Below the pieces are notes generated by a model. The model made no database searches. It was not told the DNA's origin and was given only the letters and a program-made list of their open reading frames with translations. Position numbers and translations under genes: made by a program. Shown piece after piece: positions 2,496 through 45,671 of a stretch of 64,000 nt of DNA. Location of the stretch: positions 61,609 to 125,608 of the IMG/VR virus record IMGVR_UViG_3300033069_001940; one strand, 5' to 3'. Position 1 is the first letter of the stretch. Each line of letters starts with the position of its first letter. Source of the DNA: a virus (Duplodnaviria; Caudoviricetes).

Positions 2496-2517
2496 ATTTT
2501 AAGTTCGTGATAGTCTA

Positions 2518-2535
2518 CGAGGCTCTTGTTTTCAA
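2518..2535 (+). promoter_or_regulatory. Leader motif shared with 7769-7786
   Basis: CGAGGCTCTTGTTTTCAA vs CGAGCCTCTTGGTTTAAA (15/18), 38 and 36 nt before the ATG. Confidence 0.35.
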
Positions 2536-2555
2536 TTTGAAAATACGACACACAT

Positions 2556-3155
2556 ATGACAATTGAAAAAGAAGATAAATTAGTTCCATTACCAAATAAA
2601 TGGTGGGCGAATTTCTTTGAAAAATTCAAAGAAATAGAAACTTTGAAAATTTCTCAATGGAAAGAAATTCATCATTTAGCTTATATCTGTAAAAGATATA
2701 AAGATATTTATGGCCGCCAATTTTCATTTTCTTTTAAATCATCTCCGGGCAAATGCCCAGAGATGGTTTTGGTTAAAAGAATTGGCCCCATGATCGGAAC
2801 CTCTAATCAAAAAATAATCAAAGAGTATATTGATTGGGTTTTTGATGAGAAAATTATTCCTAAAAATATGCATCTCAGGTCTTTGGGTTTTCTGACATTA
2901 CCTGGATTAGGTAATGAATTTTTAGCAGCTAAAGCTAAAGCTAAAATAATTGATAAAACAACTATTCTTCCTAAAGAATATCAAGATATTGTCGATCGAT
3001 TCGAGCTTCCAATTCAGACTTATGGAGATTTAGCTTTTGCTAAAAATGCAATTGATGAAGCGCCAGAAGATGAATCTAGATTACCATATAAAAATATGTT
3101 AAATCAACTATATTGTATGGGGCTAGAGCCAAGCATTTTAAGTGGATTAAAATGA
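2556..3155 (+). CDS. Hypothetical protein at head of replication operon
   Basis: 199-aa ORF upstream of dnaC/dnaB-like genes, ATGA overlap with next gene. Confidence 0.75.
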   Translation: MTIEKEDKLVPLPNKWWANFFEKFKEIETLKISQWKEIHHLAYICKRYKDIYGRQFSFSFKSSPGKCPEMVLVKRIGPMIGTSNQKIIKEYIDWVFDEKIIPKNMHLRSLGFLTLPGLGNEFLAAKAKAKIIDKTTILPKEYQDIVDRFELPIQTYGDLAFAKNAIDEAPEDESRLPYKNMLNQLYCMGLEPSILSGLK

Positions 3156-3700
3156 TAGGACAAATAGTTAAGGTTTATCTGGTTAACGGAACTGGAGTAG
3201 ATGGCCGGTTAACAGAATTAAATAATAAAAGATTAATTCTTGATTCAATCGAATCAGAGGAACAATTAATGATTCTTAATCCTTATAAAAATATTATAAT
3301 GATTAGAACTTTTTCTTCTCTTAAAAAAGAAGTTGAGAAAAACAATCTTAATGTTAAAGAAACTTCTCCTTCTAAAAAAGAAGCTGTGGTGGAAAATGAA
3401 ATAGAAGAAAATGAAAGAGAAGAAACTGAAGATGAAATTTCCCCATTAGCTTTGAGGGCAAGAAACATTGCCGAGCTAAAAGCAATGGAAGCCAAAGCTG
3501 AAGCAGAGCAAATTGCGGCAGCGTTAAAAAAACAAGAGATTTTAGAAAATAGAAAAAATATAGACACTTACGAGGATAAATATGGGGAAATCGATTATGC
3601 CAAGTGTAGCTCTCAGAAACCTACCACAAAAAAAAGTAGTAGATATGATGGAAAGAACACTTCTAGATTGCCAGACGTGTTCTTCAAACAAAGAAAGTAA
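3152..3700 (+). CDS. Protein with N-terminal Hfq/Sm-like domain and charged tail
   Basis: Start 3152 by ATGA overlap; VKVYLVNGTGVDGRL...LIL...QLMI...YKNI resembles Hfq VSIYLVNGIKLQGQI...QMVYKHAI. Confidence 0.5.
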   Translation: MIGQIVKVYLVNGTGVDGRLTELNNKRLILDSIESEEQLMILNPYKNIIMIRTFSSLKKEVEKNNLNVKETSPSKKEAVVENEIEENEREETEDEISPLALRARNIAELKAMEAKAEAEQIAAALKKQEILENRKNIDTYEDKYGEIDYAKCSSQKPTTKKSSRYDGKNTSRLPDVFFKQRK

Positions 3701-4319
3701 TTTAACCAACGCCTGTGATCGTTGTAAAACAATTAATACTGCTTTAATTAGATATTCCGAAGCTAACATTCCGGTTAAATATTGGAATTTATCAGTGGCT
3801 CCAGAAGATTTTACTGGAGATAAGGTTCTTTTAAGTAAATATCAAGAAGTGGTAAAAGATATAAAAACCTCTTACCGAAAAGGTATTTGTTTATGTTTTG
3901 CGGGTGCTAATGGTCTTGGTAAAACATTAATTTCAACTTCAATTCTAAAGAGAGCCGTAGAAAAAGGTTATACGGCTTTATATACTACATTAAGCGATAT
4001 AGTTAATGTTTTAGTTTCTGCTTCTTCTGAAGAAAAGAATTTAGCAAGAAAAGAATTAATGCAAGTTGATTTTCTAGTAATTGACGAATTTGATCCTAGA
4101 CATATGGGTTCAGATAATGCAGCAGATTTATTTGGAAGAGTATTAGAAGATGTGTTAAGGAATAGAACTCAAAACACACTTCCTTTATTTTTATGTACCA
4201 ATTCGCCCTCTGTATTGGATTCTTTTTCCGGACCAATCAAAATGAGTATTGGTAGTTTAATGAATTATGTTACTACTGTTTCAGTTCTTGGCAAAGATCA
4301 AAGAAAACAAGGCAAATGA
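3582..4319 (+). CDS. dnaC: DnaC/IstB-like helicase loader ATPase
   Basis: SD GAGGA; N-terminal CxxC...CxxC; Walker A GANGLGKT; Walker B FLVIDE; directly upstream of dnaB. Confidence 0.85.
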   Translation: MGKSIMPSVALRNLPQKKVVDMMERTLLDCQTCSSNKESNLTNACDRCKTINTALIRYSEANIPVKYWNLSVAPEDFTGDKVLLSKYQEVVKDIKTSYRKGICLCFAGANGLGKTLISTSILKRAVEKGYTALYTTLSDIVNVLVSASSEEKNLARKELMQVDFLVIDEFDPRHMGSDNAADLFGRVLEDVLRNRTQNTLPLFLCTNSPSVLDSFSGPIKMSIGSLMNYVTTVSVLGKDQRKQGK

Positions 4320-5749
4320 TGGAAGAAGACTTAGACTTAATTATAGAAGAGCAAGACCTTAGAATCTTAAAATCAGTTACTTCAGATCTAAATTGTGGTT
4401 TAGAGTTTGCACAAACTTATAGTGAAGATTTATTTGTTGGCGACGCTAAAAAGTTAGCTAAACCTGTTTTATCTTATCTTAGAGCTTACAAAAATTTACC
4501 AACTGAACGTGTTTTAATTGAGCATTCTCGTACAAAAGAGGATAAGCAAGTTATTTCGCATTTATGGCAAGAAGTTCAGAAAACTGAATTTGATCAAAGC
4601 GAATTTAGGTATGAATTAGATAAGATTAAAAATAGATATACTGTAAATAAAATTCAATCTCTAAAAGATTTAGAGTTTGGAGAAGACTTAGAGCAAACTA
4701 TACGAAGAATTCAGACAGAATTAGAATCTGTCAAACAGATTCGTTCTGGTAAAGCGGCCACTTTTACTCAAAAAACATTAAAAAGTTACGTTCCAGAATT
4801 TAAAAAAGTTTACAATGATAAATATAACGATAAAACTTTAGGTCGTGGCATATTAACTGGGTATTCATTTTTAGATTATGTAAAGAACGGATTATTACCA
4901 TCTGATATGGTGGTAATAGGTGGAGAGACAGCTTCGGGAAAATCTGTGTTTTTAAACAATTTAGCTGTTCAAATGTGGATGCAGAAAAATACTCTTGATA
5001 CTCATCCTTCAGAGTTTACAAAAGGGTGCAATGTTCTGTATTTTTCATTAGAAATGCCATACGAGATGTGTGCTCGACGTACGTTTGGACGCTTGGCTGA
5101 TGTTCCCTTATATGCTTTAAGGGATTCTACTCTTAATCGCTCTGAAATGGAATCAATGGCCAAGGCAACTTCTTTTATTGAGAAGTATCCATTTGAATTT
5201 GAAATAGTTGATATTCCTAGAGGAGTAACGGTTGACCAAATTGAGGCTAGATTTTTAGATGCTCGTCAAAGATTTCAGCCAGATGTAATTGTCGTCGATT
5301 ATCTTGGTTTATTAGAAGACCATGAGGCTCAAGGTGATGATTGGTTAAAATTAGGTTTTATTGCTGGCAAACTTCATGAATTAGCTAGAGCTTATAATAT
5401 CGTGATGTTGACGGCTGTTCAACTTAATAGAATTAGTTCTAAAAATCCAGACCATAATGAAGTAGTTGGCATGCATAGAATTGGTCGATCATCATTAATC
5501 ATGCATAATGCTACAGTTGGAATTCAAATTGAAACCAGAAAAGACGAGCACTTATTTGCTGATTTTAGGTATCACATAATTAAGAATCGGGACGGCGCTT
5601 TGGGCGGCCATTCTCTTAAAAAGAATTTTAAAAATGCTTCACTGTTAGATACAGAATATGTTTCTGATGGCATTATTTCGACGGCTAGCGATAATGATGT
5701 GCAAGATATCTCAGACTTATTAGCTAAGTATAAATGGAATCAAAAATAA
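4316..5749 (+). CDS. dnaB: Replicative DNA helicase DnaB-like
   Basis: GETASGKS, YFSLEM, VVDYLGLL, AVQLNR, IIKNRDG motifs. Confidence 0.93.
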   Translation: MMEEDLDLIIEEQDLRILKSVTSDLNCGLEFAQTYSEDLFVGDAKKLAKPVLSYLRAYKNLPTERVLIEHSRTKEDKQVISHLWQEVQKTEFDQSEFRYELDKIKNRYTVNKIQSLKDLEFGEDLEQTIRRIQTELESVKQIRSGKAATFTQKTLKSYVPEFKKVYNDKYNDKTLGRGILTGYSFLDYVKNGLLPSDMVVIGGETASGKSVFLNNLAVQMWMQKNTLDTHPSEFTKGCNVLYFSLEMPYEMCARRTFGRLADVPLYALRDSTLNRSEMESMAKATSFIEKYPFEFEIVDIPRGVTVDQIEARFLDARQRFQPDVIVVDYLGLLEDHEAQGDDWLKLGFIAGKLHELARAYNIVMLTAVQLNRISSKNPDHNEVVGMHRIGRSSLIMHNATVGIQIETRKDEHLFADFRYHIIKNRDGALGGHSLKKNFKNASLLDTEYVSDGIISTASDNDVQDISDLLAKYKWNQK

Positions 5750-5949: not shown

Positions 5950-6416
5950 AAAAACGAATTATAACTAAAGATTCATATACAATTAAAAATTTACAAAAAG
6001 ATTCATATGAAGTTTCAAAATCCAAAGGTTTTTGGGAGGGTTTTGAAAGAGGTGATTTAGCAGCCCTTAGTGGCCAATTGCTTTTGATTCATTCCGAAGT
6101 CAGCGAGGCTTGTGAATTAGATAGAAAATCAAATCTTTTTAAAGAAGAGGGCTATGATATTCTGAAGCCGCTATATGAAGACACTGAAGGTGAATATACA
6201 GAAAAAGCAAGAGAAATAGTTCCAATTTCGGCTGACGGAAGTTATATTGAAATTAGACCAAATAAACCAGTTAGTTTGGGAAGTGAATTGGCTGATATTG
6301 TAATTAGAACCGCTCAATTAGCTGAACATCTAAATCTAGATTTAGATTTCTATATAAAAGAAAAGATGGTATATAACACATCTAGGAAAGTAAAGCATGG
6401 CGGAAAAAAGTATTAA
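5946..6416 (+). CDS. MazG-like NTP pyrophosphohydrolase
   Basis: IHSEVSEACE...ELADIVIR; C-terminal KM.YN..R..KHGGK. Confidence 0.85.
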   Translation: MKKRIITKDSYTIKNLQKDSYEVSKSKGFWEGFERGDLAALSGQLLLIHSEVSEACELDRKSNLFKEEGYDILKPLYEDTEGEYTEKAREIVPISADGSYIEIRPNKPVSLGSELADIVIRTAQLAEHLNLDLDFYIKEKMVYNTSRKVKHGGKKY

Positions 6417-6939
6417 TTTAGAAGAAAATTGGATTCAGACTTTTACAGGTAAATCATTTTTCCCATTATCTCCAAATTCAGAAGATGTCTGTATTGAAGA
6501 TATCGCTCATGCTTTAAGTTTAATTTGCAGATTTAATGGTCATTCTTTGGGATTTTATAGTGTGGCGCAACATTGTATTTTAGTTTCAAAATATTGCAGT
6601 GAGAAAAATAAGTTGGCAGGATTATTACATGATTCGGCAGAAGCATATATTTGTGATATTCCTAAGCCATTAAAACATAGTAAAGATTTTGCTAGATATA
6701 GATATATTGAGTCTATGGTAGAAGCATCTATCGCTTTTAAATTTGCAACTCATTGGGAAATTGAAGAAGTTAAAGATGTCGATTTTAAAATGTTAGCAAC
6801 TGAAAAAAGAGATTTGATGGCGCCCTCTCAAAAAGATTGGGGGTGGCTGCCAGAACCTTATCCAGAAAAAATAATTCCTTTATCCCCAAAGGAAGCTGAA
6901 GAATTATTTTTAAAAACATTTATTCAATTAAAAAGGTAA
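6397..6939 (+). CDS. HD-domain 5'-deoxynucleotidase (YfdR/YfbR-like)
   Basis: DIAHALS..CRFNGH, YSVAQH, LLHDSAEAY. Confidence 0.9.
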   Translation: MAEKSINLEENWIQTFTGKSFFPLSPNSEDVCIEDIAHALSLICRFNGHSLGFYSVAQHCILVSKYCSEKNKLAGLLHDSAEAYICDIPKPLKHSKDFARYRYIESMVEASIAFKFATHWEIEEVKDVDFKMLATEKRDLMAPSQKDWGWLPEPYPEKIIPLSPKEAEELFLKTFIQLKR

Positions 6940-6941
6940 AT

Positions 6942-7262
6942 ATGTTATATGATCATTTGTGCAGCGCTTGTAATACAGAATTTGAATTAGAATATTCTAT
7001 TAAAGAAGATCCGCCTACAAAATGTCCATTATGTGGCGTTGATGGGCAGGTTAAACGGTTGATTTCCTATGCTACTCCAGGCAAGGTTGAATTATATGGA
7101 AGAGAACTTCAAGAAAAGAATAAAGAAGACGCTAGGAAGATGGTTAGAGATGGTGGAGAGAATTTTGTGGCCAATATTCTTGGCGAAAGTAGATATAACT
7201 CTTTAGCTAGTAACGCCGACCAATCTCGCGGTAAAAAATCCACATTTAGAAGAACAAAATAA
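6942..7262 (+). CDS. FmdB-family zinc-ribbon protein
   Basis: YDHLCSAC...CPLCG...RLIS. Confidence 0.8.
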   Translation: MLYDHLCSACNTEFELEYSIKEDPPTKCPLCGVDGQVKRLISYATPGKVELYGRELQEKNKEDARKMVRDGGENFVANILGESRYNSLASNADQSRGKKSTFRRTK

Positions 7263-7269
7263 AGGAATA

Positions 7270-7746
7270 ATGTTTGAAGAAAAAGTTACAAATTATGAGG
7301 TTAAATCATTAGATGAATTAAATCAATTCGTTGAGCAGAAAAAATCTGAAGGGTATACGGAAATAATTCCTGCTGATAATGTTAGGGAATTTAAAAAAGG
7401 ATTTTTTGTTTCTGAGCCTTGGCCAGATATTAACGATCCTAAAAATAAAGAAAAAATAATTTCTAAAGAAGTGTTTTTTGTCAATAGTTTTTATGTTACA
7501 TATTCAATTTATCCAACAGCTAAAATTAATCCATGCCAATATGTTGAAGATGTCGAGGAAATTAAAAAATTATTAAATGCTTATTGGGGTAAATTACAAA
7601 AAGCTGACAATCCAAAACAGCTTAGGGCGGGTTTTGTTTGGTATGATTACGATAAGAATGAAATTAATTCTTTTGAATTTCATATGAAACATGTACGAGA
7701 ATTAAAAGATATTTTAATTAGAGATAATTTTTGGACTTATGGTTAA
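7270..7746 (+). CDS. Hypothetical protein
   Basis: 158-aa ORF with AAGGA SD. Confidence 0.7.
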   Translation: MFEEKVTNYEVKSLDELNQFVEQKKSEGYTEIIPADNVREFKKGFFVSEPWPDINDPKNKEKIISKEVFFVNSFYVTYSIYPTAKINPCQYVEDVEEIKKLLNAYWGKLQKADNPKQLRAGFVWYDYDKNEINSFEFHMKHVRELKDILIRDNFWTYG

Positions 7747-7804
7747 TTATTAAAGACTCTTAATACTTCGAGCCTCTTGGTTTAAAACCATAACTCTTTT
7801 AGTT

Positions 7805-8494
7805 ATGAGTTTAAAAAATATCCAAGAACAAAACGAAAAAGTAGAAAAAATAATAGATCAGTTTCTTCTTTTAAAGAAGAATTCAGTTAAATCTTTGGCC
7901 AACAAACAAGAATTTGAAAAATTTCAAAACTTTTGTATGAAAGAATTAAATTTTTTAGTTCAAAAAAGAGTTGCTAAATATAAAAAGTTTTCTAATTATC
8001 AAGATTTGCAACAAGATGGATATGAGGCTCTTCTTTATGCTCTTCGGACCTTTAAAAGAGAAAAAGGCTGCTTCTCTTGGTGGGCTGATAAGTATATTAG
8101 CACAAGAGTGTCGAGGGCTGCTAACACACATTCCACAATCCGTTTCCCTTTAAAAGTTACAAAAGAGTCAAAGCCTCATAAAATTAGTATTGATACTTCA
8201 TCAACGGATGAACAATCTCAAATTATATTTTCGCAGGAAACTTATCCTTCTTCAGCTTTTCTGTTAGAAAAAGCCGAAGAAAACGCTATAGTGGGAGTTT
8301 TGTTAAATAAAATTGACCAACCTTATCAAGATTTATTAAAATTGACATATGGATTGGCTAATGAGATGGCTTTGCCAGTATCAAAAATAATTAAACAATT
8401 TCAAATATCTAGGTCTCAATATCTAAGGCTTCTAGAGGAAGCTAAAACAAAATTTAAAAATTTGTTAGATAATTATGAATATTCTGACAAATAA
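7805..8494 (+). CDS. Phage-encoded sigma70-family sigma factor
   Basis: Region 2: DLQQDGYEALLYALRTF..EKGCFSWWA..YI, TIRFP; region 4-like LTYGL...ISRSQY..L..EA. Confidence 0.85.
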   Translation: MSLKNIQEQNEKVEKIIDQFLLLKKNSVKSLANKQEFEKFQNFCMKELNFLVQKRVAKYKKFSNYQDLQQDGYEALLYALRTFKREKGCFSWWADKYISTRVSRAANTHSTIRFPLKVTKESKPHKISIDTSSTDEQSQIIFSQETYPSSAFLLEKAEENAIVGVLLNKIDQPYQDLLKLTYGLANEMALPVSKIIKQFQISRSQYLRLLEEAKTKFKNLLDNYEYSDK

Positions 8495-8535
8495 TAACCT
8501 AAAGATTCTTTAGGTTAGTCATTCGGAGAAAATTA

Positions 8536-10404
8536 ATGCATTCTAATATTAACAGTACAGAAATATTAAGCGAAATTACAATATTTAATAAATACGCCAA
8601 GTATGTTCCAGAAATATACAGGAGAGAAACTTGGGAAGAGTTATGCGAAAGAAATATGAATATGCATATTAAAAAATATCCTGAATTGGAGAATGAAATA
8701 AGATATGTGTATGCGAATTTTGTTCTGAAAAAGAAAGTGCTACCAAGCATGAGATCAATGCAATTTGCTGGTAAGCCAATTGAACTATCACCAAATAGAA
8801 TTTTTAATTGTGCATTTTGTCCTATTGATGATTATCGTGTTTTTTCTGAAATAATGTTTCTTTTGCTTGGCGGTACGGGTGTTGGATATTCTGTACAAAA
8901 ACATCATGTAGCAAAGCTTCCTCCAGTTAAAAAACCAGTGCGTACACGTCGGTATGTAGTTAGTGATTCAATTGAAGGTTGGGCCGACGCTGTAAAGGCG
9001 TTGGTTGGAGCCTACTTAGCCGGAAAGGCTTTACCAGTTTTTGATTATTCAGATATTAGACCTAAAGGCGCCGCCCTTGTTACGTCTGGCGGTAAAGCCC
9101 CAGGCCCTGAGCCTTTAAAAGATTGCATTCATAATTTACAAAAAATATTTGATAGAAAAAATGACGGAGAACAACTTACTACACTTGAAGCTCATGATGT
9201 AACTTGTTTTATAGCCGATGCAGTTTTGGCTGGCGGTATTCGTAGAGCCGCTTTAATTTCTTTATTTAATATTGATGATGAAGATATGTTAAGTTGTAAG
9301 GCTGGAAATTGGTGGGAGTTGAACCCACAAAGAGCCAGGGCTAATAATTCAGCCGTTGTCATGAGACATAAAGTTACTAAAGAAGATTTTATGAATCTTT
9401 GGTCCAAAGTAAAAGCTTCAAGAAGTGGCGAGCCAGGAATCTTATTCTCAAATAATTCCGAGTGGGGCACGAATCCTTGCAGCGAAATAGGTTTAAGACC
9501 ATTCCAATTTTGTAATTTGGTTGAAATAAATCTTTCAAATATTGAATCTCAAGAAGATCTTAATGAAAGAGCTAAAGCAGTTTCTTTTATTGCAACACTT
9601 CAGGCGGGATATACTGATTTTCATTATTTAAGAGACGTTTGGAAAAGAACAACGGAAAAAGACGCTTTGTTAGGCGTATCTGGCACCGGAATAGCATCAC
9701 AAGCTTATCTCAAGTGTAATTTACAAGAAGCGGCTGAAATAGTAAAACAAGAAAATAAAAGGATTGCTAAAATTATTGGTATCAATACTGCTGCTAGACA
9801 GACTTGTGTAAAACCTTCTGGCACCTCATCACTTGTTCTTGGTACATCATCAGGAATTCATGCCTGGTTTGATAAATTTTATATTCGTCGAATGAAGCTT
9901 GGCAAAAATGAGCCACTTTATAAGTATTTAAAAGAAAAAATGCCAAACTTAATTGAAGATGATTTCTTTAAACCAAATTTAGATGCATTTGTAATGATTC
10001 CAGTGGCGGCACCAAAAGACGCTGTAATTGCTCCAAATGAATCTGCTTTAGATCTATTAGAAAGAATTAAACATTTTTCTGAAAATTGGGTTAAGCCTGG
10101 CCATGTTAAAGGTGATAATACTCATAATGTTTCTGCGACTGTTTATATTAAGGACCATGAATGGGAAAATGTAGCTGAATGGATGTGGAGTAATAGAGAC
10201 TCATATAATGGGCTAGCTGTATTGCCATTTGATGGTGGTACTTATACGCAGGCTCCACATGAATCAATTACAGAAGAAAAATATAACGAATTAGTTTCGT
10301 ATATCAAAAATATTGATTTATCTGAAGTTGTTGAATCTATTGATAATACCTCTAGAAGTCAAGAACTTGCTTGTGCTGGCGGGGTTTGTGAAATTCAATA
10401 TTAG
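8536..10404 (+). CDS. nrdJ: Class II (B12-dependent) ribonucleotide reductase, monomeric type
   Basis: FNCAF, GGIRRAALI, TNPCSEI, FCNL, VKPSGT, C-terminal CAGGVCEI; no radical subunit adjacent. Confidence 0.93.
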   Translation: MHSNINSTEILSEITIFNKYAKYVPEIYRRETWEELCERNMNMHIKKYPELENEIRYVYANFVLKKKVLPSMRSMQFAGKPIELSPNRIFNCAFCPIDDYRVFSEIMFLLLGGTGVGYSVQKHHVAKLPPVKKPVRTRRYVVSDSIEGWADAVKALVGAYLAGKALPVFDYSDIRPKGAALVTSGGKAPGPEPLKDCIHNLQKIFDRKNDGEQLTTLEAHDVTCFIADAVLAGGIRRAALISLFNIDDEDMLSCKAGNWWELNPQRARANNSAVVMRHKVTKEDFMNLWSKVKASRSGEPGILFSNNSEWGTNPCSEIGLRPFQFCNLVEINLSNIESQEDLNERAKAVSFIATLQAGYTDFHYLRDVWKRTTEKDALLGVSGTGIASQAYLKCNLQEAAEIVKQENKRIAKIIGINTAARQTCVKPSGTSSLVLGTSSGIHAWFDKFYIRRMKLGKNEPLYKYLKEKMPNLIEDDFFKPNLDAFVMIPVAAPKDAVIAPNESALDLLERIKHFSENWVKPGHVKGDNTHNVSATVYIKDHEWENVAEWMWSNRDSYNGLAVLPFDGGTYTQAPHESITEEKYNELVSYIKNIDLSEVVESIDNTSRSQELACAGGVCEIQY

Positions 10405-11022: not shown

Positions 11023-11329
11023 AAAATTTGAATTATTAGCAGAATACGCCGGATTAGTTACGGTTAGAAATCATTTAATGACTTTATTGGAAACTTCTAG
11101 AACTTTATTTGCTAAAGGCGACCAAAATAAAATTGCCAACTTAGTAAGAGAAATGGATAAAGAGCTTCTTAAAGTAGCTCTGTCTCCTAATGACGTCGAG
11201 GAAAATGTTCAGCCAGTAGTAGTTGTTAAGACTCCGCAAGCTCCGGTCACTACGGAAAACATGCCTGTTGATGTAGTTGTTGAAGAAAAGACTAAAAAGT
11301 CTTCTTTTCGTCGTGCTGGTCAAGAATAA
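11015..11329 (+). CDS. Hypothetical protein
   Basis: 104-aa ORF overlapping both neighbours by a few nt. Confidence 0.65.
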   Translation: MNKKFELLAEYAGLVTVRNHLMTLLETSRTLFAKGDQNKIANLVREMDKELLKVALSPNDVEENVQPVVVVKTPQAPVTTENMPVDVVVEEKTKKSSFRRAGQE

Positions 11330-12099
11330 TGAATTTTAGAGAAACTAATTTTATTGTATTAAATACGACTGAAGATTTTTATCAAAATCAAAAGATAGCA
11401 GGTAGTTGTGTTAAAGCCTGTCTTAATAGATCAGAGGAATTAGCTAAACCAGGAATCTCCCTGAGAGAAATAGAATATGAATGTCTTTTGATTTTAAATG
11501 AATATAAATGCAAACCAACCTTTCTTGGTTATAAAGGTTTTCCAGGGGCTATTTGCGCTTCAGTTAATAATCAATTAGTTCACGGAACACCTTCCGATTA
11601 TATTTTGCAATCTGGGGATTTATTAAAAATAGATCTTGGAGCTACATATAATGGCGCTATTGCAGACGCTGCTAGAACTTTTATTGTTGATAAAGCTTTT
11701 TCAATAGAACATGTAGAGCTAGTTAATAAATGCAGACAAGCTTTGGACGTGGCTAAAACTAGTGTTCAAGTAGGTAAAAGAATTGGTTCTATTGGATATG
11801 CAATAGATCGTTTTGTTAAGAAAAATTGTAGATTTAGTTTGATTACTAATTATGGCGGACATGGAATTTCGTTAAATGAGCCGCACGCTCAGCCATTTGT
11901 GCCGAATAGATCTAACTCTGATGAAGGAATTAGAATTCAACCTGGACTGACTATTGCAATTGAGCCGATGCTTTCTTTAAGTTCTAATTATACAAAAGTA
12001 GCTTCAGACGGCTGGACAGTTTTGTCAGATGGTGTTAGTTCTCATTTTGAAGATACAATTTACATTAAAAATGATGGTTCGATTGAGGTTTTAACATGA
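11329..12099 (+). CDS. map: Methionine aminopeptidase type I
   Basis: F.GY.GFP..IC.SVN...VHG.P, KIDLG, DAART, GHGI...HAQP, AIEPM, HFEDT. Confidence 0.95.
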   Translation: MNFRETNFIVLNTTEDFYQNQKIAGSCVKACLNRSEELAKPGISLREIEYECLLILNEYKCKPTFLGYKGFPGAICASVNNQLVHGTPSDYILQSGDLLKIDLGATYNGAIADAARTFIVDKAFSIEHVELVNKCRQALDVAKTSVQVGKRIGSIGYAIDRFVKKNCRFSLITNYGGHGISLNEPHAQPFVPNRSNSDEGIRIQPGLTIAIEPMLSLSSNYTKVASDGWTVLSDGVSSHFEDTIYIKNDGSIEVLT

Positions 12100-20017: not shown

Positions 20018-20879
20018 TTTTAACCTTATATTTAGTAATTCCTGGAGTAACGGAAATGGCTTTGGCTATTTCTGGATTTTTCATAGCTTCTTCAAAACTC
20101 ATAGTTTGCCCGTTGTATTTAACTGTTCCTCCAACTAGCCTAGCTGAAGAAAGATATTCGGTATGTCCGGTGGTATCATGTGGTGTAAATGGTGAATGTT
20201 GAATAGGTTTACCATTTTTATCATAATAGCCGTATAAACTTAGTTTACCGTCTCTGGTTGGTTGAACAATATCTTTCATGTGGCCAGCAATTAATTTAGG
20301 AGGAGTATTGCCGTGTTGTTTTTTTAATTCCTCTTCGACTCTTTGATTGTATGCAACAGAGGTATCGGAATCTCCAATTTTTGTTGCTACAACTTGTTCT
20401 CCGGTATAATTTTTGCCACCAATTACTCCACCAGCACTTAAAGGTGCTGGCTGAATTTTTCCATCAGCCGCCGTCCAGATTTGTTTTGACATTTTGGTTG
20501 TGGGTAGATACATTCCAAAGTGGTTAGCTATTCTTTGGGCCGTCTGGCCGGTTAATGGAACTCGAATTCCATCAATAGTAAGATAGTCACTCATAACATA
20601 GTAGGTTAATTTGCCCCCGTCCGGCACTTGCACTGTAACAGGAACTAAGTTTTTAGGTGGCCCCATTTTGATTGCCTCTTGATAAATTAATTCTTCTCTT
20701 GCCGGCCCTTGAGGCATTTTAGCAAATTTATCTTTAAAACTTTCTGGCTTAGTTAAAGCGTCAATATTGGCGCCAAGTGGTTCTAATTTTTCTTTATTTT
20801 CAATAGCTTTATTAACCACATCCAGCAAAGCTGATTTCTTATAAAGCCTTTTCATTAATTCTAAGCGATAGTTACTCAT
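20007..20879 (-). CDS. Conserved hypothetical protein, possible cell-wall-acting enzyme
   Basis: DYL.I...RVPL...AQRIA...LPT.KM...IW, AGH.KDIV, YG....G.PIQ, H...Y....RLV; family function unknown to me. Confidence 0.6.
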   Translation of the reverse strand: MSNYRLELMKRLYKKSALLDVVNKAIENKEKLEPLGANIDALTKPESFKDKFAKMPQGPAREELIYQEAIKMGPPKNLVPVTVQVPDGGKLTYYVMSDYLTIDGIRVPLTGQTAQRIANHFGMYLPTTKMSKQIWTAADGKIQPAPLSAGGVIGGKNYTGEQVVATKIGDSDTSVAYNQRVEEELKKQHGNTPPKLIAGHMKDIVQPTRDGKLSLYGYYDKNGKPIQHSPFTPHDTTGHTEYLSSARLVGGTVKYNGQTMSFEEAMKNPEIAKAISVTPGITKYKVKNEK

Positions 20880-20974
20880 AACATAATGAAAATTTATTCA
20901 TAGAAAGAAAATTATGTACATTTTAAATCACCAATTACGATTCGTTTCAATTGATTTACCATTAAAGGTAAAAT

Positions 20975-21247
20975 ATGAATAGAGAAGAAAATGACCCAAT
21001 TTATTTAAATGCTTTATATGATGTTCTAGGCCGTCTAGGCGGGGATGATACACACGCGAGTCTTAGCAATTTGGACTATGAGTCTACTATTAAAGAAATT
21101 TTAAGTATGGTAGAGGCTCATGAAGAAATTGCCTCTAAACGTCATTGCAGGCTTTTAAGAAGAAAAGCGGCCAAGCTAGTTCTGCAAAAAGGCTTAGTTG
21201 AATTAGCAGAAGATATTCTAGAATTAGATTTATTAGAGGAAAAATAA
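20975..21247 (+). CDS. Hypothetical protein
   Basis: 90-aa ORF with AAGG SD. Confidence 0.6.
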   Translation: MNREENDPIYLNALYDVLGRLGGDDTHASLSNLDYESTIKEILSMVEAHEEIASKRHCRLLRRKAAKLVLQKGLVELAEDILELDLLEEK

Positions 21248-21250
21248 TTT

Positions 21251-22087
21251 ATGTCAAAAACTACAGCATTATACGCAATTTCGGCGGCACTACATAAAGC
21301 AGAAGAATTTGCCGAAGTCAAAGACTGGTATAGTAAAAATGATTTTCAAAAAGAATTTTTGGAAAAATTCTTTCCCAAAGACTCAGAGTCACAATACTTT
21401 ACTCCAGAAGAATTAGAATCAATCGCCTCTACTAGCGCCGAAGAAATTAATTCGTTTTTAAAAGAACGAGGTTTTGATTTAGAGTTAGGGCCAATTCCTC
21501 CATATGGTTTTGGGACGGCTGGGGTTATGCGGGTTTTGGTGAAATGGAAAAAAGCTGGAACGAAGATTAAAATTTTTAATAAAAATCGCAAAGAATATCC
21601 TGCTGCAAAGTTAGAAAATATAGCTATTTATGAAGTTAAAGGCTGGCCTAATTTGGTAGCGGAGATTGAATGCGAAAATAAAGATAAAGTTTATCTTACC
21701 AAAGCTGAGAAAGATTATTCTGGTTTCTGGTTTTTACCAGAACAACTTTTAGAAGAAAATAATTTCCTTCGCAAAGGATTTTACGAAATTAAATTTCCTT
21801 TTGTTGATTTAAATCAAATGGTTGATATATCTTTTCTTCAAAACATGGCACTAGAAAATCAATTTCAAATTGAAAAAGCAATTCAACAAACTAAATTCAG
21901 GATGAATCACCTTGGTGCAAAAGCGGAAAGTGCAGCGGCTTTTAAATATTTAAGATGTTGTAGCCAATCTCCTTCATTAATTTTTAATGAGCCTTTTCTA
22001 ATTTGGATGACTAGACCAGGATTATCTATGCCATATTTTGTTGGTTACATTACAGAAGATGACTGGAAGGATCCGGGTGATTTATGA
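21251..22087 (+). CDS. Serpin-like protein (shortened, 278 aa)
   Basis: EEINSFL, VKWK, KAIQQTKFRMNHLGAKAESAAA hinge, LIFNEPFLIWM, PYFVGYI. Confidence 0.65.
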   Translation: MSKTTALYAISAALHKAEEFAEVKDWYSKNDFQKEFLEKFFPKDSESQYFTPEELESIASTSAEEINSFLKERGFDLELGPIPPYGFGTAGVMRVLVKWKKAGTKIKIFNKNRKEYPAAKLENIAIYEVKGWPNLVAEIECENKDKVYLTKAEKDYSGFWFLPEQLLEENNFLRKGFYEIKFPFVDLNQMVDISFLQNMALENQFQIEKAIQQTKFRMNHLGAKAESAAAFKYLRCCSQSPSLIFNEPFLIWMTRPGLSMPYFVGYITEDDWKDPGDL

Positions 22088-24124: not shown

Positions 24125-24931
24125 ATGTCAGGTTTTTTTGGAAGAGGATCGGCGGGAGCGCAAGGGCCACAGGGGCCGCAAGGACCGGAAGGGCCGGCTG
24201 GTCCTCCTGGAGCGGGGGCATCACGATTAGTTGCATTGGATGAAAATGATTTAATACAATGGAAATTTAATGAGGTATCAGGCCCATTTCTTAATACTGG
24301 TTCTGGTGGAACTTGTTCACTGGCAGCGACTGGAAATATTACAACATCTGTTGTAAGTTTATTTAATACTGGTGTAGTTGTCAACGATTCTGCTGCTGCT
24401 AAATTATGTTCCGTAGATACGACTGTCGGAGAAGCGCCGGGAGGAGCCGTAACATTGCATGGTTGGGTTCATCCTTTGGGTTGGACTAATGCTGCTGGTG
24501 GATTCTGGAAATTAGCCGCTCAAACTGGTGGCGGCTGGCAACAGCCATATACTAGCCTTGGTTGGCAAATTGGAAGCAATAGCGGAATCTGGACGGCAGT
24601 TTGTGCTGTTGGTGGAGAACAAAAATATGGCACAGTTTCCCAATTCAATGCATTAAAGCTTAATATGTGGCAACATATAGCTGTTGTTCATAATGGTTTA
24701 AAATTAAAAGGTTATATTAATGGAAATTTAGCAATTGACGTTGATGCCGTAGGTGATACAGATTGGTCGGCTCATGGTCCGTGGTGTATTGGCGACAATG
24801 TTAATAATTCTGGGCAAACAATAAATATGATTTTTGATGATTGGCGTGTTAGATCGGTTGCTATGACTCAGGAAGAAATAGAAGAAATTTATCGACGTGC
24901 TCTTGGGTTATACCCCGCCAACGGAGAATAA
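24125..24931 (+). CDS. Collagen-repeat + LamG/concanavalin A-like protein (putative virion appendage)
   Basis: GxY repeats (GPQGPQGPEGPAGPPG); W.HIAVV..G.....YING, IG, DDWRV...A.T.EEI..IY; locally higher GC. Confidence 0.8.
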   Translation: MSGFFGRGSAGAQGPQGPQGPEGPAGPPGAGASRLVALDENDLIQWKFNEVSGPFLNTGSGGTCSLAATGNITTSVVSLFNTGVVVNDSAAAKLCSVDTTVGEAPGGAVTLHGWVHPLGWTNAAGGFWKLAAQTGGGWQQPYTSLGWQIGSNSGIWTAVCAVGGEQKYGTVSQFNALKLNMWQHIAVVHNGLKLKGYINGNLAIDVDAVGDTDWSAHGPWCIGDNVNNSGQTINMIFDDWRVRSVAMTQEEIEEIYRRALGLYPANGE

Positions 24932-32063: not shown

Positions 32064-32471
32064 ATGACTAATTTAGTTAAGAAAGATCCATTTGATATTT
32101 TTTCTAGATTTTTCACAGTTGATAACTTTTTTTCTAGGCCAACATTTGCTTCTTGGCCAGATTCAGATTGGGTATTAGATGGAGACAAATATCTTTTGAG
32201 ACTGGAAGTTCCAGGATTTTCTCAATCAGATTTAAAGGTTAACGTTTATCAAGAAAATAAAGTTAGAGTAGTCGGCTCAGTATCTATTGATAATAAATTT
32301 AGACATTCTAGTTCTAGTATAGATTATAGTTATTCGTTACCAGATAACTCTGACCCAGAAACATTAGAAGCCAGCTATCAATCTGGCGTTCTATTAATTT
32401 CTGTGACTCGAAAAACGTCGAGCGCGCGAGAGTTAACTATTAAATGTTCAGAGGAAAAAGAGAGTAAGTAG
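32064..32471 (+). CDS. Small heat-shock protein (Hsp20/alpha-crystallin)
   Basis: LEVPGF...DL.V, YSLP...D...LEASYQSGVLLI. Confidence 0.9.
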   Translation: MTNLVKKDPFDIFSRFFTVDNFFSRPTFASWPDSDWVLDGDKYLLRLEVPGFSQSDLKVNVYQENKVRVVGSVSIDNKFRHSSSSIDYSYSLPDNSDPETLEASYQSGVLLISVTRKTSSARELTIKCSEEKESK

Positions 32472-37297: not shown

Positions 37298-37540
37298 ATG
37301 AAAATCTATGCATTATATAATCCAAATCATCTTCATTTAATCAAGAACATTTCTTTCTTTTCAACCAAAGAAAAAGCTTGTGCAGCCCTTGACGCTATGT
37401 ATAAAGGGATTAAATCCCGAGGTGGAGTTCATGAAATTAAAAAGTCAGAAACAGAATTCTCTTTTCTTTTTGGCTGGGAAGAGGCTCAAGTAGTTTGGAG
37501 AGTTGTGGAAATTGAATTAGACCAAGAGGAAAAATGTTAG
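37298..37540 (+). CDS. Hypothetical protein
   Basis: Probable start MKIYAL. Confidence 0.6.
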   Translation: MKIYALYNPNHLHLIKNISFFSTKEKACAALDAMYKGIKSRGGVHEIKKSETEFSFLFGWEEAQVVWRVVEIELDQEEKC

Positions 37541-38328
37541 AAAAAATTAAAGAATTACGCGCTAGAACTTTTTTAAGTATGAATGACTGCAAAATTGCTT
37601 TGGAGAAATCCGATTATGATGTAGAAAAAGCGATTGAATATTTACAAAAGAATGCTGGACTTAAAAAAGCAGATTCGTTATCTTTAGCTTTAGAAGGGAG
37701 AGTTTTAGCTAAGTCAAGCGGCAGCCTTGGGGCAATAGTAGAAGTTAATTGCCAGACTGATTTTGCCGCTAAGTCAGACTTATTTATAGAATTTGTAGAT
37801 AAGGTTGCTCAATCTTTAATGTCAGTCAAAAATGTTGACGTTTTATCTAGTAAAGACTATGAATTTATTGCGGCTCAATTGGGAGAGAAAGTTGTTTTTA
37901 GAAGGTCTAATGTGATTTACAATCAAAATCAGAATGCTAGATTAACCGCCTATAATCATTTAGGTGGTAAAATCGCTGTTCTTTTAGAAAGTTTAGTTTT
38001 GCTTGACTATAATCATTTGGCTTTAGAGAATGTTGCTATGCAAATCGCTGCAACCAAGCCTTTGGCTTTGGATAAAAAGTCTCTACCAAAAGAACTCGTG
38101 GAAAAACAAAAAGAAAAATTTCTTTCAGAGGTAGAAAATAAACCAGAATCAGTTAAAGATAAGATAGTCGCTGGTAAGATGGAGAAATGGTATTCTGAGG
38201 TTTGCCTCTTGAATCAAGACTGCATTTTCATTGAAGGGAATAAGAAAATGACAGTTGAAAATTATCTCAAAGAAAACAAGATTGAAAAAATTCAATCATT
38301 TTCAAGATATGAAAAAGGCGAATTATGA
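37534..38328 (+). CDS. tsf: Translation elongation factor Ts
   Basis: IKELRART...M.DCK.AL, EVNCQTDFAA, LGEK, AMQIAA..P, KP....KIV.GK..K...EVCLL.Q, RYEKGE. Confidence 0.95.
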   Translation: MLEKIKELRARTFLSMNDCKIALEKSDYDVEKAIEYLQKNAGLKKADSLSLALEGRVLAKSSGSLGAIVEVNCQTDFAAKSDLFIEFVDKVAQSLMSVKNVDVLSSKDYEFIAAQLGEKVVFRRSNVIYNQNQNARLTAYNHLGGKIAVLLESLVLLDYNHLALENVAMQIAATKPLALDKKSLPKELVEKQKEKFLSEVENKPESVKDKIVAGKMEKWYSEVCLLNQDCIFIEGNKKMTVENYLKENKIEKIQSFSRYEKGEL

Positions 38329-38841: not shown

Positions 38842-39331
38842 GTTTTTGATAACTAAAATGATGAAAATTAAAAAGAAAAATCTTCCTTTTAAGATAAAAT
38901 CTATTTTAGTAGACAAAGGTTCTTGTTTTGTAGCAGAAATTAATTCTAAAAAAGTTGTAAAAGTAGCTTATAAAACTTCCAATATTAGGTGGCTATTTAA
39001 TATCTTAAAATATATTAAAACGAATCCAAATAACAGTACGGTTAAGATTTTTGATTATGGCTTAATTGGTAAAGATAAATATTATTATGTTATGGAGAGG
39101 TTGTATCCATTAAATAAACAACATATAAATCGTTTAATCAAAAATGGTTATGTTAGCTTTGTATGCAATAAACCTTTACATGATGCAAAATCTTATCCAA
39201 ATGAATCCGCTTTTATAAATGATATTTATCAACATAAATATTATCAATCAGACCCTAATTATGGAAATATTATGTTAACCAAAAATGGTAACTATAAATT
39301 TATAGACTTAGAAACATTTATAAAATTTTAA
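38825..39331 (+). CDS. Minimal protein kinase-like protein (start uncertain)
   Basis: VVKV, VKIFDYG, YYVMERL, DPNYGNIM, KFIDLE. Confidence 0.7.
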   Translation: MNTLNKFLITKMMKIKKKNLPFKIKSILVDKGSCFVAEINSKKVVKVAYKTSNIRWLFNILKYIKTNPNNSTVKIFDYGLIGKDKYYYVMERLYPLNKQHINRLIKNGYVSFVCNKPLHDAKSYPNESAFINDIYQHKYYQSDPNYGNIMLTKNGNYKFIDLETFIKF

Positions 39332-41559
39332 TTCCTAAATTGTTGAATAAAATTAATAGCTTCTTCTTTTGTCATAGCGGGATTTTCCAATAAAGCCTCT
39401 TTTAAGGCTTTGGTAACTTTGCCAACTTCGGGCCCCGGCTTTAGTCCTAGTATTGACATAATTTCTTTACCAGTAATTGGTGGAGCAATATCTTTTTTAC
39501 CACCAGTCATTTTAAGATATTCATCAATCATTTTTCCAAAACGATCGTACTTGGGATCTAGTTCAGATTTGGCTTTACCCATAGAATCGCCTTTAGACAT
39601 ATCAACTGACAAAAAGCTATCTTGTGGCCCTAAGTCTGTTACAAAGCTTCTAATGCTTTTATCTGAAACGTCTGAAGGCAATCCATGAAGTCTCATATGA
39701 TTCTTAATTAAAGAAACTACCCTATCTTTAATATCATTAGGGGCTTTTAAATCAGTAAGTATTTCTTCAGCCATCAACGCTGAAGAAACTTCATGTCCTC
39801 GGTAAGTATAATGTTCTGGGTTATCTTTTTGTTGTGAGCAAACATCACATTTGCCGCTGTCGTGGAGAAGCATTGCTAGATTTCTAACAATTTCATCTTT
39901 AACATCCATTTTCTTAGCAAAAGATAATCCAGATTCATCCATATGCTTAAGATATTCTAAAGCCTTCATAGTATGGTTCCAAACTGTTTCAGTATGGTGT
40001 GGATTGTTTTGTTCCATATCCCAATCAGGAGTAGGCTGATTAATATTCCATTTCTCCCCGCTAGCCCTATTTTTTCTGACTTCTTCTTGATGTCTTTCAT
40101 AGGCTCTTTGAATTTGTTCTAGATTTGGTTTTAAAATTAAATCTCTAATACCTAAATCTTTTAATAATCTAGCAGCGCGATCGAAGTTAGGGCCAATTAG
40201 TAAGCCGCGCTTCCAATTATCTTTTTCTTTTTGTCCAATTAATTCAGATAAAATTCTTTCTTTGGTAATCTTTTTGCTAAAACTTTCTTGTACCCTAGGA
40301 TCATTAGCAGCAGCGATTAAACCTGGGTCTAATTGTAGATCGTATTTAGCCGCAAATCGAACGGCTCTTAGAATTCTAAGAGGGTCTTCTAAATAAGTTT
40401 GCACCGGATCGATTGGTGTTCTAGCTACTTTATTTTCTAAATCGTCTATTCCTCCAACAAAATCTTCAACTTTATCTTCGTTGATATTATAAAATAAACT
40501 GTTGATAGTTAAATCACGACGTTTAGCATCTTCTTCGGCAGGAACACCAAATTCTACTTCTGGGTTTCTAGAATCATCATTATAAACATCTTTTCTTAAT
40601 TGAACAAAATCAACTGAAATTCCTAGAATTGGAATTTGTGCTGATTCTATATTTTTATTAGCCTCTGTATTAGCTTCGACAGTAGTAACTTCTTCGGCTG
40701 CTGGCATGCCTTGTTCTTTCATCCATTCTAAAACTAATTTAGCAAAAGCAACTCCTGTCATATTATCAATAGCAATATCAATATCATGGGATGCTTTGCC
40801 CAAAAGTTTATCGCGCACCCAGCCGCCAGCCGCTCTTAAAACGGTGCTTGGAGTTTTTTCACGAACTACGGCCATGAGAAGTTCGAATATTTCTTTTTCC
40901 CTTTCTGTTAAAGAGATTTGAGAAGATAACTTAGCTTCTTTGGTTATTTTGTAAGAAGATAATTTTTTCCAAAATTCACGAGAGGCACTGGCAATTTTTG
41001 ATTCTAAGGTTAACATTCCTATTCCTAATAAATTTGCATCTTTAATTGAATGACTATTTCTAACTACTGCATTTGACTTAGGGCCAGAGTTTCCTTCAAT
41101 TGAAGTAAAATTATTTCCATTTGAGGATTCAATGACGCCTATATGACCTAATCCAGAACCTTGTGGTCCGCGTGACCAAACAGCTATATTGCCTGGGATT
41201 AAATGTTTAGGCTCTATTTTATTTTTGGGGATCCAGAGATTAGCTTGAGCGAATTGATTACCAACTTCGCGGGCTCCAACTGCTCCTTTAATCGGGCTGC
41301 TTCCGGCTTCTAACATCCAACTAGAGACAGCGGCAGCGCACCAATCTTGTTTGGCGCCCATCCCAAAATGTTTAAAATATTCTCTTATTCTTTGACCGTC
41401 ATTTTTGCCGAGGTCTTCGGAAACACCAATGTCTGCTTGGGCATTGTGTAAGACAGCTAATCCATAGGAGCTTGGGTTGATTCTGTTTTCCGGATCAAAA
41501 TCTTCAAGATCGGGCAAATATTCTTCCATTGATGGTATATCTTTTTCAGGCATTATCAT
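39328..41559 (-). CDS. cca: Fusion: CHAP-domain amidase + class II tRNA nucleotidyltransferase (CCA-adding/poly(A) polymerase family) with HD domain
   Basis: CHAP: WCAAAVS, GHIGVI, IEGNS; CCA: GGWVRDKLLG, DIDIA, RRDLTINSLFYN, EDPLRILRAVRF, QNNPHH...VWNH, LLHDSGK, GHE. Confidence 0.9.
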   Translation of the reverse strand: MIMPEKDIPSMEEYLPDLEDFDPENRINPSSYGLAVLHNAQADIGVSEDLGKNDGQRIREYFKHFGMGAKQDWCAAAVSSWMLEAGSSPIKGAVGAREVGNQFAQANLWIPKNKIEPKHLIPGNIAVWSRGPQGSGLGHIGVIESSNGNNFTSIEGNSGPKSNAVVRNSHSIKDANLLGIGMLTLESKIASASREFWKKLSSYKITKEAKLSSQISLTEREKEIFELLMAVVREKTPSTVLRAAGGWVRDKLLGKASHDIDIAIDNMTGVAFAKLVLEWMKEQGMPAAEEVTTVEANTEANKNIESAQIPILGISVDFVQLRKDVYNDDSRNPEVEFGVPAEEDAKRRDLTINSLFYNINEDKVEDFVGGIDDLENKVARTPIDPVQTYLEDPLRILRAVRFAAKYDLQLDPGLIAAANDPRVQESFSKKITKERILSELIGQKEKDNWKRGLLIGPNFDRAARLLKDLGIRDLILKPNLEQIQRAYERHQEEVRKNRASGEKWNINQPTPDWDMEQNNPHHTETVWNHTMKALEYLKHMDESGLSFAKKMDVKDEIVRNLAMLLHDSGKCDVCSQQKDNPEHYTYRGHEVSSALMAEEILTDLKAPNDIKDRVVSLIKNHMRLHGLPSDVSDKSIRSFVTDLGPQDSFLSVDMSKGDSMGKAKSELDPKYDRFGKMIDEYLKMTGGKKDIAPPITGKEIMSILGLKPGPEVGKVTKALKEALLENPAMTKEEAINFIQQFRN

Positions 41560-45670: not shown

Positions 45671-45671
45671 A

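Follow-up and report, generated by a model that had tools for sequence, protein, structure and literature searches.

The core of a canonical serpin has about 350–400 amino acids (aa) and contains helices A to I. In inhibitory serpins, the hinge has the consensus ExGTEAAAA at positions P17–P9, as given in the accessible text of Spence et al. (2021), and serpins can also inhibit cysteine proteases, including caspases and papain-like enzymes, according to the available part of a review. CrmA of cowpox virus is described, in the portions of the literature at hand, as a "minimal serpin" and a cross-class inhibitor with caspases and granzyme B as targets. A gene for a still smaller protein of this type was found at positions 21251..22087 of a 64,000-nucleotide (nt) stretch of IMG/VR virus record IMGVR_UViG_3300033069_001940 (positions 61,609 to 125,608 of the record); this whole stretch is called the window below. 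Judging from profile searches and predicted structures, its product, referred to as the query, is almost certainly a protein of the serpin superfamily, and it belongs to a large family of shortened serpins, here named mini-serpins. The function put forward tentatively, with slightly less than even confidence, is suicide inhibition, in the cytoplasm, of a host protease specific for Arg, the gene having been acquired by the phage as an accessory counter-measure. Neither a phage serpin nor a prokaryotic mini-serpin was found described in the accessible parts of the literature on serpins with phage, jumbo phage, anti-defense, and small or truncated serpins, and in the available text of the serpin phylogeny of Spence et al. 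(2021), supplements left out, "phage" and "truncat" both have 0 occurrences.

Serpin homology and the reduced scaffold

The open reading frame (ORF) and all motifs quoted for it in a sequence-only reading of the window, made from the letters without database searches, are present in the translation: NHLGAKAESAAA at residues 219–230, FKYLRCCSQS at 231–240, FNEPFLIWM at 245–253, PYFVGYI at 261–267, INSF at 66–69, and KW at 98–99. The serpin homology proposed on these motifs was borne out by profiles. Pfam Serpin PF00079 matched query residues 197–267 at profile positions 296–367 of 370, with E 7.1e-5 and 22.6 bits; the curated cut-off is 27 bits, a gathering score that serves as an operational threshold and not as a structural criterion. 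Several relatives of the query scored above this cut-off, with 34.7, 32.8, 32.3, and 30.1 bits, and 26 of the 32 aligned relatives matched PF00079 at E ≤ 0.01, the best with 6.9e-10. The family profile of 32 sequences recognized PAI-1 with E 5.1e-8 (profile 128–279, chain 212–377) and neuroserpin with E 8.8e-6 (profile 35–278, chain 119–391). When the single query was compared with PDB sequences, nothing significant was found; the best chain was alpha-1-antitrypsin with E 0.57, in a weak alignment of chain residues 319–389 that ends at query residue 268. For the N-terminal ~140 residues, a profile of 25 sequences found no serpin among nine PDB sequences at E ≤ 10, and PHROGs gave only weak matches of the query (E 0.011 and 0.14), to families without known function. 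PDB chain 9hbk_C, a "Superinfection exclusion protein" matched by the profile with E 1.7e-3, was considered as a phage lead and rejected. It is taken as poxviral because its code appears in a monkeypox entry-complex paper, in the part of that paper available, and because its sister entry, 9hl2, bears the title A56/K2 of vaccinia virus.

The AlphaFold2 model of the query, computed from a 32-row alignment, has mean pLDDT of 91.6 and pTM of 0.79; the five models reached 91.6, 91.2, 79.6, 78.1, and 76.0. Foldseek returned 123 PDB matches at E ≤ 0.001, and the matches listed are serpins, with probability 1.00 and TM of 0.47–0.61 by query. In VIA-align, thermopin 1mtp_A was aligned over 224 residues with Z 14.7 and rmsd of 3.1 Å, and about 50 more serpin entries had Z of at least 13.8. 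The Atlas holds an independent model of the query sequence with pTM of 0.83, whose TM to a canonical serpin cluster is 0.75, and 0.67 when its first 130 residues are taken alone. AlphaFold2 was also applied to a family member from Thorarchaeota that shares about 31% identity with the query; this second model (pLDDT 83.3) aligned with cleaved CBG and PAI-1 at Z 18.8–18.6 over 261–263 residues, with rmsd of 3.4 Å at Z 18.8. The order of elements s5A, hinge/loop, s1C, s4B, and s5B of the serpin fold is present in the model of the query. The AlphaFold and Foldseek check that had been suggested with the sequence-only reading thus returned a serpin fold, and its estimate that the protein is about 100 aa shorter than typical serpins was accurate, as the query has 278 aa and the matched chains have 320–390 residues.

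The query does not have the full canonical core and is a reduced variant rather than a typical member. Since the structural alignments begin at model residue 1, equivalent to alpha-1-antitrypsin residue 48, helix A has no counterpart in the query. The alignment with PAI-1 spans 152 profile positions and 166 chain residues, and therefore the C-terminal half is nearly full length. Most of the lost residues lie N-terminal to the strand ending in Trp99. In front of this strand, the model has four helices (7–21, 31–40, 44–49, and 63–72) and one strand (55–60); the corresponding part of canonical serpins comprises five helices, B to F, together with three strands. The strand with Trp99 is presumably s3A of sheet A, an assignment made from general serpin topology and the order of elements. 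W99 is invariant in three family alignments, and F249 and P261 are invariant in the family alignment.

Hinge, reactive-centre loop, and predicted location

Loop statistics were computed from 242 proteins, of which 222 have 250–345 aa and 219 were distinct after identical sequences were removed; conservation was calculated as column entropy in bits for 28 blocks of ten residues. Conservation in the family is highest in strand s5A and the hinge, with block entropies of 1.01 and 1.34 bits, the former (mean of s5A block 211–220) being the lowest among all blocks. Gly222, at P15, is found in 219 of 219 members. At the inward-facing hinge positions, Ala occupies P14 in 184 members, Val or Ala P12 in 194, Ser P10 in 207, and Val or Ala P8 in 199; P9 is Ala in 196 members, and charged or polar residues stand at the outward-facing P13 and P11. 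Charge or Pro at an inward-facing position is limited to eight members; the remaining 211 have no charge or Pro at P14, P12, P10, and P8 and no Pro in P15–P6. The query hinge, G-A-K-A-E-S-A-A-A, has the inhibitory-type features for strand insertion, with Gly at P15, small uncharged residues facing inward, and no Pro. As read from the sequences, the family hinge follows the logic of the published inhibitory consensus.

The distal part of the loop belongs to one of the four most variable among the 28 blocks (Table 1). At the position Gly+13, the 219 members have Arg (65), Leu (42), Lys (23), Ala (19), Cys (15), or Phe (13), and at Gly+14 they have Gly (45), Cys (34), Ser (29), Glu (29), or Thr (27). 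Following Arg or Lys (127 cases), the residue is Cys in 42, Gly in 28, Ser in 23, and Thr in 12. Arg/Lys, Leu, Ala, or Phe and then a small residue is the pattern of a P1–P1' pair; Gly+13 is likely P1, followed by a small P1', and R235–C236 (nt 21953–21958) would be the scissile bond of the query, or the bond one residue later. A strict count from Gly222 as P15 puts P1 at C236, and the structural alignment ends with model residues 235–236 opposite alpha-1-antitrypsin residue 358, which we take to be the P1 of that protein. The proposal "P1 Arg or Cys", made earlier by counting from the hinge, was reasonable, as the Gly count and the structural alignment lead to C236 and the family pattern (Arg or Lys in 88 of 219) leads to R235. 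Between P6 and P5' of the query loop F-K-Y-L-R-C-C-S-Q-S there is no Asp or Glu, and an acidic P1 of the CrmA type is absent.

The putative bait residue varies between close copies. Tandem paralogues within single Thorarchaeota genomes have Lys versus Ala at the putative P1. Outside the loop, 88% of the residues are shared by the query and its nearest relative; within it, the two agree at five of 12 positions, with an indel of two residues and the Arg lost in the relative. Cys makes up 4.7% of the distal-loop residues versus 0.88% elsewhere. A Cys is found in the loop of 95 of 219 members, and Cys-Cys in that of 26, among them the query. In a subclade near the query, the loop contains small-x-Glu and then Cys-Cys. 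SerpinB9 has a conserved loop cysteine pair and is inactivated by a vicinal disulfide, according to the available part of a review, and by analogy a redox switch acting via the loop Cys-Cys is conceivable.

The start of the family is conserved as well: 173 of 219 members begin no more than 10 residues from the conserved M-S-x-T N-terminus, and a signal-peptide-like extension is found in only about two of 219. For these reasons, the family is predicted to be cytoplasmic. The query starts with M-S-x-T like the family, which supports the annotated ATG.

Table 1. Features of the mini-serpin gene and of the C1 peptidase gene in the window
Feature	Residues	Position (nt)	Strand	Basis
GAGG, likely ribosome-binding site		21236..21239	+	11 nt 5' of ATG; read from sequence
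Mini-serpin gene		21251..22087	+	ATG start, 278 codons and stop; ORF, Pfam Serpin, family profile, AlphaFold2, VIA-align
Long strand ending in invariant Trp99 ("KW")	87–99	21509..21547	+	strand E87–99 in model
Strand s5A (A-x-Q-Q-T-K-F-x-M-N)	205–219	21863..21907	+	strand E205–218; aligns with s5A of PAI-1 and alpha-1-antitrypsin
Hinge P17–P7 (H-L-G-A-K-A-E-S-A-A-A)	220–230	21908..21940	+	family hinge counts, 219 members
Distal reactive-centre loop (F-K-Y-L-R-C-C-S-Q-S-P-S)	231–242	21941..21976	+	block 231–240 entropy 2.94 bits, indels
C-terminal strands s1C, s4B, s5B (L-I-F-N-E-P-F-L-I-W-M ... P-Y-F-V-G-Y-I)	243–267	21977..22051	+	strands E249–253 and E263–267; Pfam-matched part
Family-specific C-terminal tail (T-E-D-D-W-K-D-P-G-D-L)	268–278	22052..22084	+	near-invariant Trp272
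Papain-family (C1) peptidase, 263 aa		12444..13235	+	PF00112 E 1.3e-12; no signal-like N-terminal segment

Distribution of mini-serpins and genome setting

When 1.84 billion cluster representatives were searched exhaustively with HMMER, members of the family numbered 1207 at E ≤ 1e-3, 847 at ≤ 1e-10, and 250 at ≤ 1e-30. The median length in a set of 180 proteins is 295 aa, and 149 of them have between 280 and 319 aa. No mini-serpin was found in 50,697 deposited phage records. In IMG/VR, four mini-serpin loci were identified on contigs of 26 to 435 kb, and BFVD had only six structures at E ≤ 0.001, all from viruses of eukaryotes. Uroviricota is the commonest labelled phylum in the Atlas clusters of the family, where labels exist for just 11 and 29 members. 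A pattern scan of GTDB (one genome per species) found 54 loci, all in records of uncultured organisms or metagenome-assembled genomes (MAGs); 17 are labelled as Asgard archaea (15 of them Thorarchaeota), 13 as candidate phyla radiation (CPR), and four as Dependentiae or Babeliales.

Several of the GTDB mini-serpins are clearly chromosomal and not mis-binned phage genes. The gene follows the S13-S11-S4-RpoA-L17 operon in two Dependentiae, lies between LepA and GrpE/SSB on a chromosome of 1.7 Mb, and on a Thorarchaeota contig adjoins genes for a Ras-family GTPase and a leucine-rich repeat (LRR) protein. Five genomes with chromosomal copies carry one to three each, and no canonical serpin was found in these five, PF00079 finding the mini-serpin copies alone. 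The existence of a large family encoded partly on cellular chromosomes is a point absent from the sequence-only reading. One member bears the automatic NCBI name "serpin family protein"; the family is thus partly recognized by annotation pipelines and is not described in the literature searched.

In a maximum-likelihood tree of 66 rows computed with careful search, the window protein pairs with protein P0002 (100/100) in a clade of seven rows (99/86), which are unlabelled metagenomic proteins. An Asgard clade of 23 rows, with tandem paralogues, had SH-aLRT of 99 in the quick tree. Tandem mini-serpins occur in Thorarchaeota and in one CPR-labelled genome (locus L036, 4852–5751 and 5935–6864; L011, 5971–6852 and 7383–8285; L045 and L056 likewise), and their difference at P1 resembles classical serpin gene clusters. 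Thorarchaeota genomes have two to three mini-serpin copies without a canonical serpin.

Some relatives carry additional domains. With 43–45% identity, P0004 (380 aa) and P0039 (375 aa) are nearest to the query apart from trivial relatives, and both have a C-terminal domain of the ribosomal L7/L12 C-terminal type (PF00542, E 2.7e-13 and 9.5e-11, respectively). The L7/L12 C-terminal fold class also takes in the Clp adaptor ClpS, and the fused domain may serve to attach the serpin to a translation GTPase or a protease machine. In P0114 (367 aa), a WGR domain (PF05406, E 1e-5) is located at 139–206, and the mini-serpin match is in two stretches. On a Pseudomonadales-labelled MAG contig (L006; genes at 2281–5214, 6001–6873, 6905–7780, and 8077–9021), a mini-serpin is followed by a very diverged copy, which has the longest branch of the tree. 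Genes for a 978-aa SMC_N/AAA_21 ATPase and for an M14-like carboxypeptidase flank the two copies, and the setting could be defence-island-like.

The virus record that holds the gene of the query has 125,608 bases. Its placement in a bacteriophage, as claimed from the sequence, agrees with the gene content. The half of the record outside the window codes for tail sheath, baseplate proteins, glycosyltransferases, and PhuZ-like tubulin, and annotated in the window are two helicases, ribonucleotide reductase, thymidylate synthase, dihydrofolate reductase (DHFR), homing endonucleases, a transposase, EF-Ts, HSP20, an M24 peptidase, and a C1 peptidase. The DnaB-like helicase has less than 30% identity to those of the nearest deposited phages. 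No tRNA genes were found in the window. The serpin gene is the second in a co-oriented run of small genes lacking assigned function, which starts past a divergent intergenic gap (20879–20975), and its stop codon overlaps the start of the next gene. Its G+C content of 0.336 and GC3 of 0.233 agree with the values for 20 further ORFs from this phage (0.319 ± 0.043 and 0.209 ± 0.037, respectively); the gene is not a recent arrival. Promoter matches were no more frequent than expected by chance (11 versus 14.8 ± 4.2), and terminator matches were around chance (2 versus 1.9 ± 1.3). An identical contig sequence was present in three runs of one study, and fragments were present in one riverine run of a second study; no sequence differences were found where contigs of these four runs cover the gene.

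All-against-all clustering of ORFs from 58 loci and the window revealed no conserved neighbour beyond close Thorarchaeota relatives, and the largest other clusters consist of antisense ORFs inside the serpin gene. When 13 neighbours from the window and the C1 peptidase were compared with 81 other loci by tblastn, a match was obtained in L059 alone, a locus that had been retrieved by one of these same neighbours. One related phage fragment (15% complete) has a neighbour gene with 54% identity and no mini-serpin. Given this fragment, the lack of a conserved neighbour, the blank among deposited phage records, and the four loci in IMG/VR, the phage mini-serpin is an accessory gene.

Other genes of the window were also observed. 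An IS200/IS605-type transposase-like gene (53383–54567, minus strand; phrog_506, E 4.7e-107) lies within the phage genome. An ORF of 743 aa (39328–41559, minus strand) unites CHAP (peptidoglycan amidase/peptidase), the head of a tRNA nucleotidyltransferase/poly(A) polymerase, and HD in an unusual fusion. EF-Ts, HSP20, the M24 (methionine-aminopeptidase-type) peptidase, and an NAD synthase-like protein are encoded at 37534–38328, 32064–32471, 11329–12099, and 45639–46532, respectively, a set of translation and proteostasis genes typical for huge phages. The product of 24125–24931 (plus strand, 268 aa) has a collagen-like Gly-Pro-X run followed by a Laminin_G_3/concanavalin-like lectin domain (PF13385, E 1.9e-13) and is probably a fibre or receptor-binding protein encoded outside the tail module.

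Possible function and comparison with known inhibitors

If the query acts as a suicide inhibitor, a protease would attack the exposed bait loop at R235–C236, or one residue later, and the acyl or thioacyl intermediate would be trapped as the hinge (222–235) slides in as a new strand beside s5A (205–218), leaving the protease covalently held and distorted. As the target, a protease of the host cytoplasm with cleavage after Arg is most likely, one whose activity would harm the infection, for example, as the proteolytic arm of a defence or suicide response. Metacaspases, according to the text available from the source, cleave after Arg. Four elements of this scheme are what we infer, namely the metastable native state, the inhibition, the bond that is cut, and the host identity of the target. 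A more far-reaching version is unlikely; according to it, mini-serpins would form a module for protease control inside cells that is widespread in archaea, bacteria, and their large viruses, a scaffold of ~280 aa, with far fewer elements than assumed so far, would be enough for the serpin spring, and the phage copy would be an anti-defence counterpart of CrmA that traps an Arg-specific caspase-like (metacaspase/CHAT-type) or trypsin-like suicide protease and so blocks abortive infection.

Several observations weigh against a host-directed inhibitor. About 100 residues are lost, the model has only four helices and one strand (of at least three residues) before the putative s3A, and metastability is in doubt. 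In both AlphaFold2 models, the hinge is already inserted as a strand beside s5A (E222–235 in the query, E249–260 in the archaeal protein), and cleaved or latent serpins head the structural matches; if the modelled state were the native one, the protein could not inhibit. At P17 the query has His, where 132 of 219 members have Glu. With P1 at R235, the N-side of the loop is one residue shorter than the canonical count, and the Arg is nearer to the hinge. Among 61 close pairs (60–97% identical elsewhere), loop identity is 0.72 versus 0.75 for the rest and is lower in 28 pairs, no general sign of accelerated loop evolution, to which the query and its nearest relative are the exception. No recurrent protease was found by Pfam near mini-serpins (105 and 80 neighbour ORFs). 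NCBIfam had no match for the query, and PADLOC at E ≤ 0.01 had none for the query, for five of the six relatives scanned, or for four neighbours, the sixth relative having a weak and implausible REase_II match (E 0.009). Because the family is also present on cellular chromosomes, its ancestral role is not an anti-host one.

Part of this evidence would be explained by a non-inhibitory serpin fold, in which the hinge strand is permanently inserted in a latent-like manner and the protein serves for binding, as a scaffold, or as a decoy substrate with a variable surface loop. The inserted hinge of both models, the cleaved or latent structural matches, the heavily reduced scaffold without helix A, and the absence of accelerated loop evolution in close pairs all speak for it, and the L7/L12-type fusions of some relatives hint at a docking role. 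However, the conformational state modelled by AlphaFold2 is a prediction and not evidence on the native state. A merely structural strand needs no invariant Gly at P15 together with the frequent Glu at P17, as in the inhibitory consensus, and Arg, Lys, or Leu followed by a small residue, together with Cys enriched fivefold at one position of the loop, resembles a protease bait. A serious rival although somewhat unlikely overall, this explanation had been left open in the sequence-only reading, and the inserted hinge in both models keeps that caution in place. Alternatively, the serpin could regulate the phage's own cytoplasmic C1 peptidase and hold it in check until needed, as had also been suggested. 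The phage encodes this peptidase without a signal-like N-terminus, and a hydrophobic residue followed by Arg, the classical preference of the papain family, fits Y-L-R of the loop. Inhibition of papain-like proteases by serpins is covered by references in the available part of the review.

The C1 peptidase has 223 homologues at E ≤ 1e-5 with 45–85% identity, many of them on contigs of 100–435 kb, and the role of such a conserved, cytoplasmic-looking peptidase in huge phages appears unexplained. The two genes lie 8 kb apart in the phage, and the peptidase is conserved across many contigs, whereas the serpin is sporadic. The sample of co-occurrence comprised 12 of the 19 C1-bearing IMG/VR records, selected for a length of at least 131 kb, one twin having been dropped. 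None of the 12, three of them at least 90% complete, had a mini-serpin, in a search that recovered five of five known mini-serpin carriers; in the converse comparison, two of five serpin-bearing records, and one of two complete virus records, had the C1 peptidase. The serpin is therefore no regular partner of the C1 peptidase, and regular pairing was mostly rejected; a lineage-specific pairing in this phage could still exist, and control of the phage's own peptidase, weakened by these counts, is rather improbable as the function. Least probable is blocking of a protease of a competing phage, such as the capsid-maturation protease, in superinfection exclusion, with antiviral inhibition as the corresponding role in cells. 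The occurrence of the family in both cells and phages would suit it, as would the subclade near the query with small-x-Glu before Cys-Cys, a motif similar to those at which prohead proteases of the T4-like and phiKZ-like types cleave after Glu. Yet the query loop has no Glu, and no prohead protease was found in the 125.6-kb fragment.

As an inhibitor, the mini-serpin would be the smallest working serpin scaffold known, a natural experiment on the elements needed by the stressed-to-relaxed spring, and a compact chassis for engineered protease traps. Action against a host protease, if true, would extend the strategy of poxvirus CrmA to bacterial viruses and point to protease-dependent host defences. 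As a non-inhibitory protein, it would be a clean case of the serpin fold reused for another purpose. The family is large, present in multiple copies in Thorarchaeota, and found in Dependentiae and CPR genomes without a canonical serpin; in several little-studied lineages, mini-serpins, if inhibitory, may therefore represent the predominant type of serpin.

Canonical serpins, such as alpha-1-antitrypsin, PAI-1, neuroserpin, and thermopin (1mtp), are homologous to the mini-serpin in the C-terminal half, have the same fold (Z 14.7–18.8), and share the hinge with Gly at P15 and small inward residues. The mini-serpin differs from them in being ~100 residues shorter, without helix A and with fewer helices before s3A, in its N-terminal 140 residues, which have no detectable sequence similarity to the solved serpins tested (nine PDB sequences), in a likely P1 one residue closer to the hinge, and in its own C-terminal tail with a conserved Trp. 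Clade B serpins also lack a signal peptide, and the loop cysteine pair of SerpinB9, as known from the available part of the review, parallels the Cys-Cys of some mini-serpins, but they are eukaryotic and have a full-length scaffold. CrmA is likewise a virus-encoded, intracellular, shortened serpin and was matched by Foldseek (1f0c_A with E 6.0e-9, also 1m93_B); the main chain of cleaved CrmA in 1f0c_A has 297 residues, versus 278 aa for the whole phage protein. The specificity of CrmA implies an acidic P1, whereas the P1 of the phage serpin would be Arg or Cys, and the virus of CrmA infects animals, whereas the host of the phage is a bacterium. M152R of myxoma virus, an animal poxvirus, which we take to be Serp-3, is a similarly short serpin-like protein of 273 aa (BFVD E 1.4e-7, TM 0.48–0.49); with only 11% identity to the phage serpin, the two were reduced independently. 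Phage T4 encodes PinA, an inhibitor of the host protease Lon. PinA follows the same logic as proposed for the mini-serpin, a phage protein neutralizing a cytoplasmic protease of the host, with an unrelated fold and mechanism.

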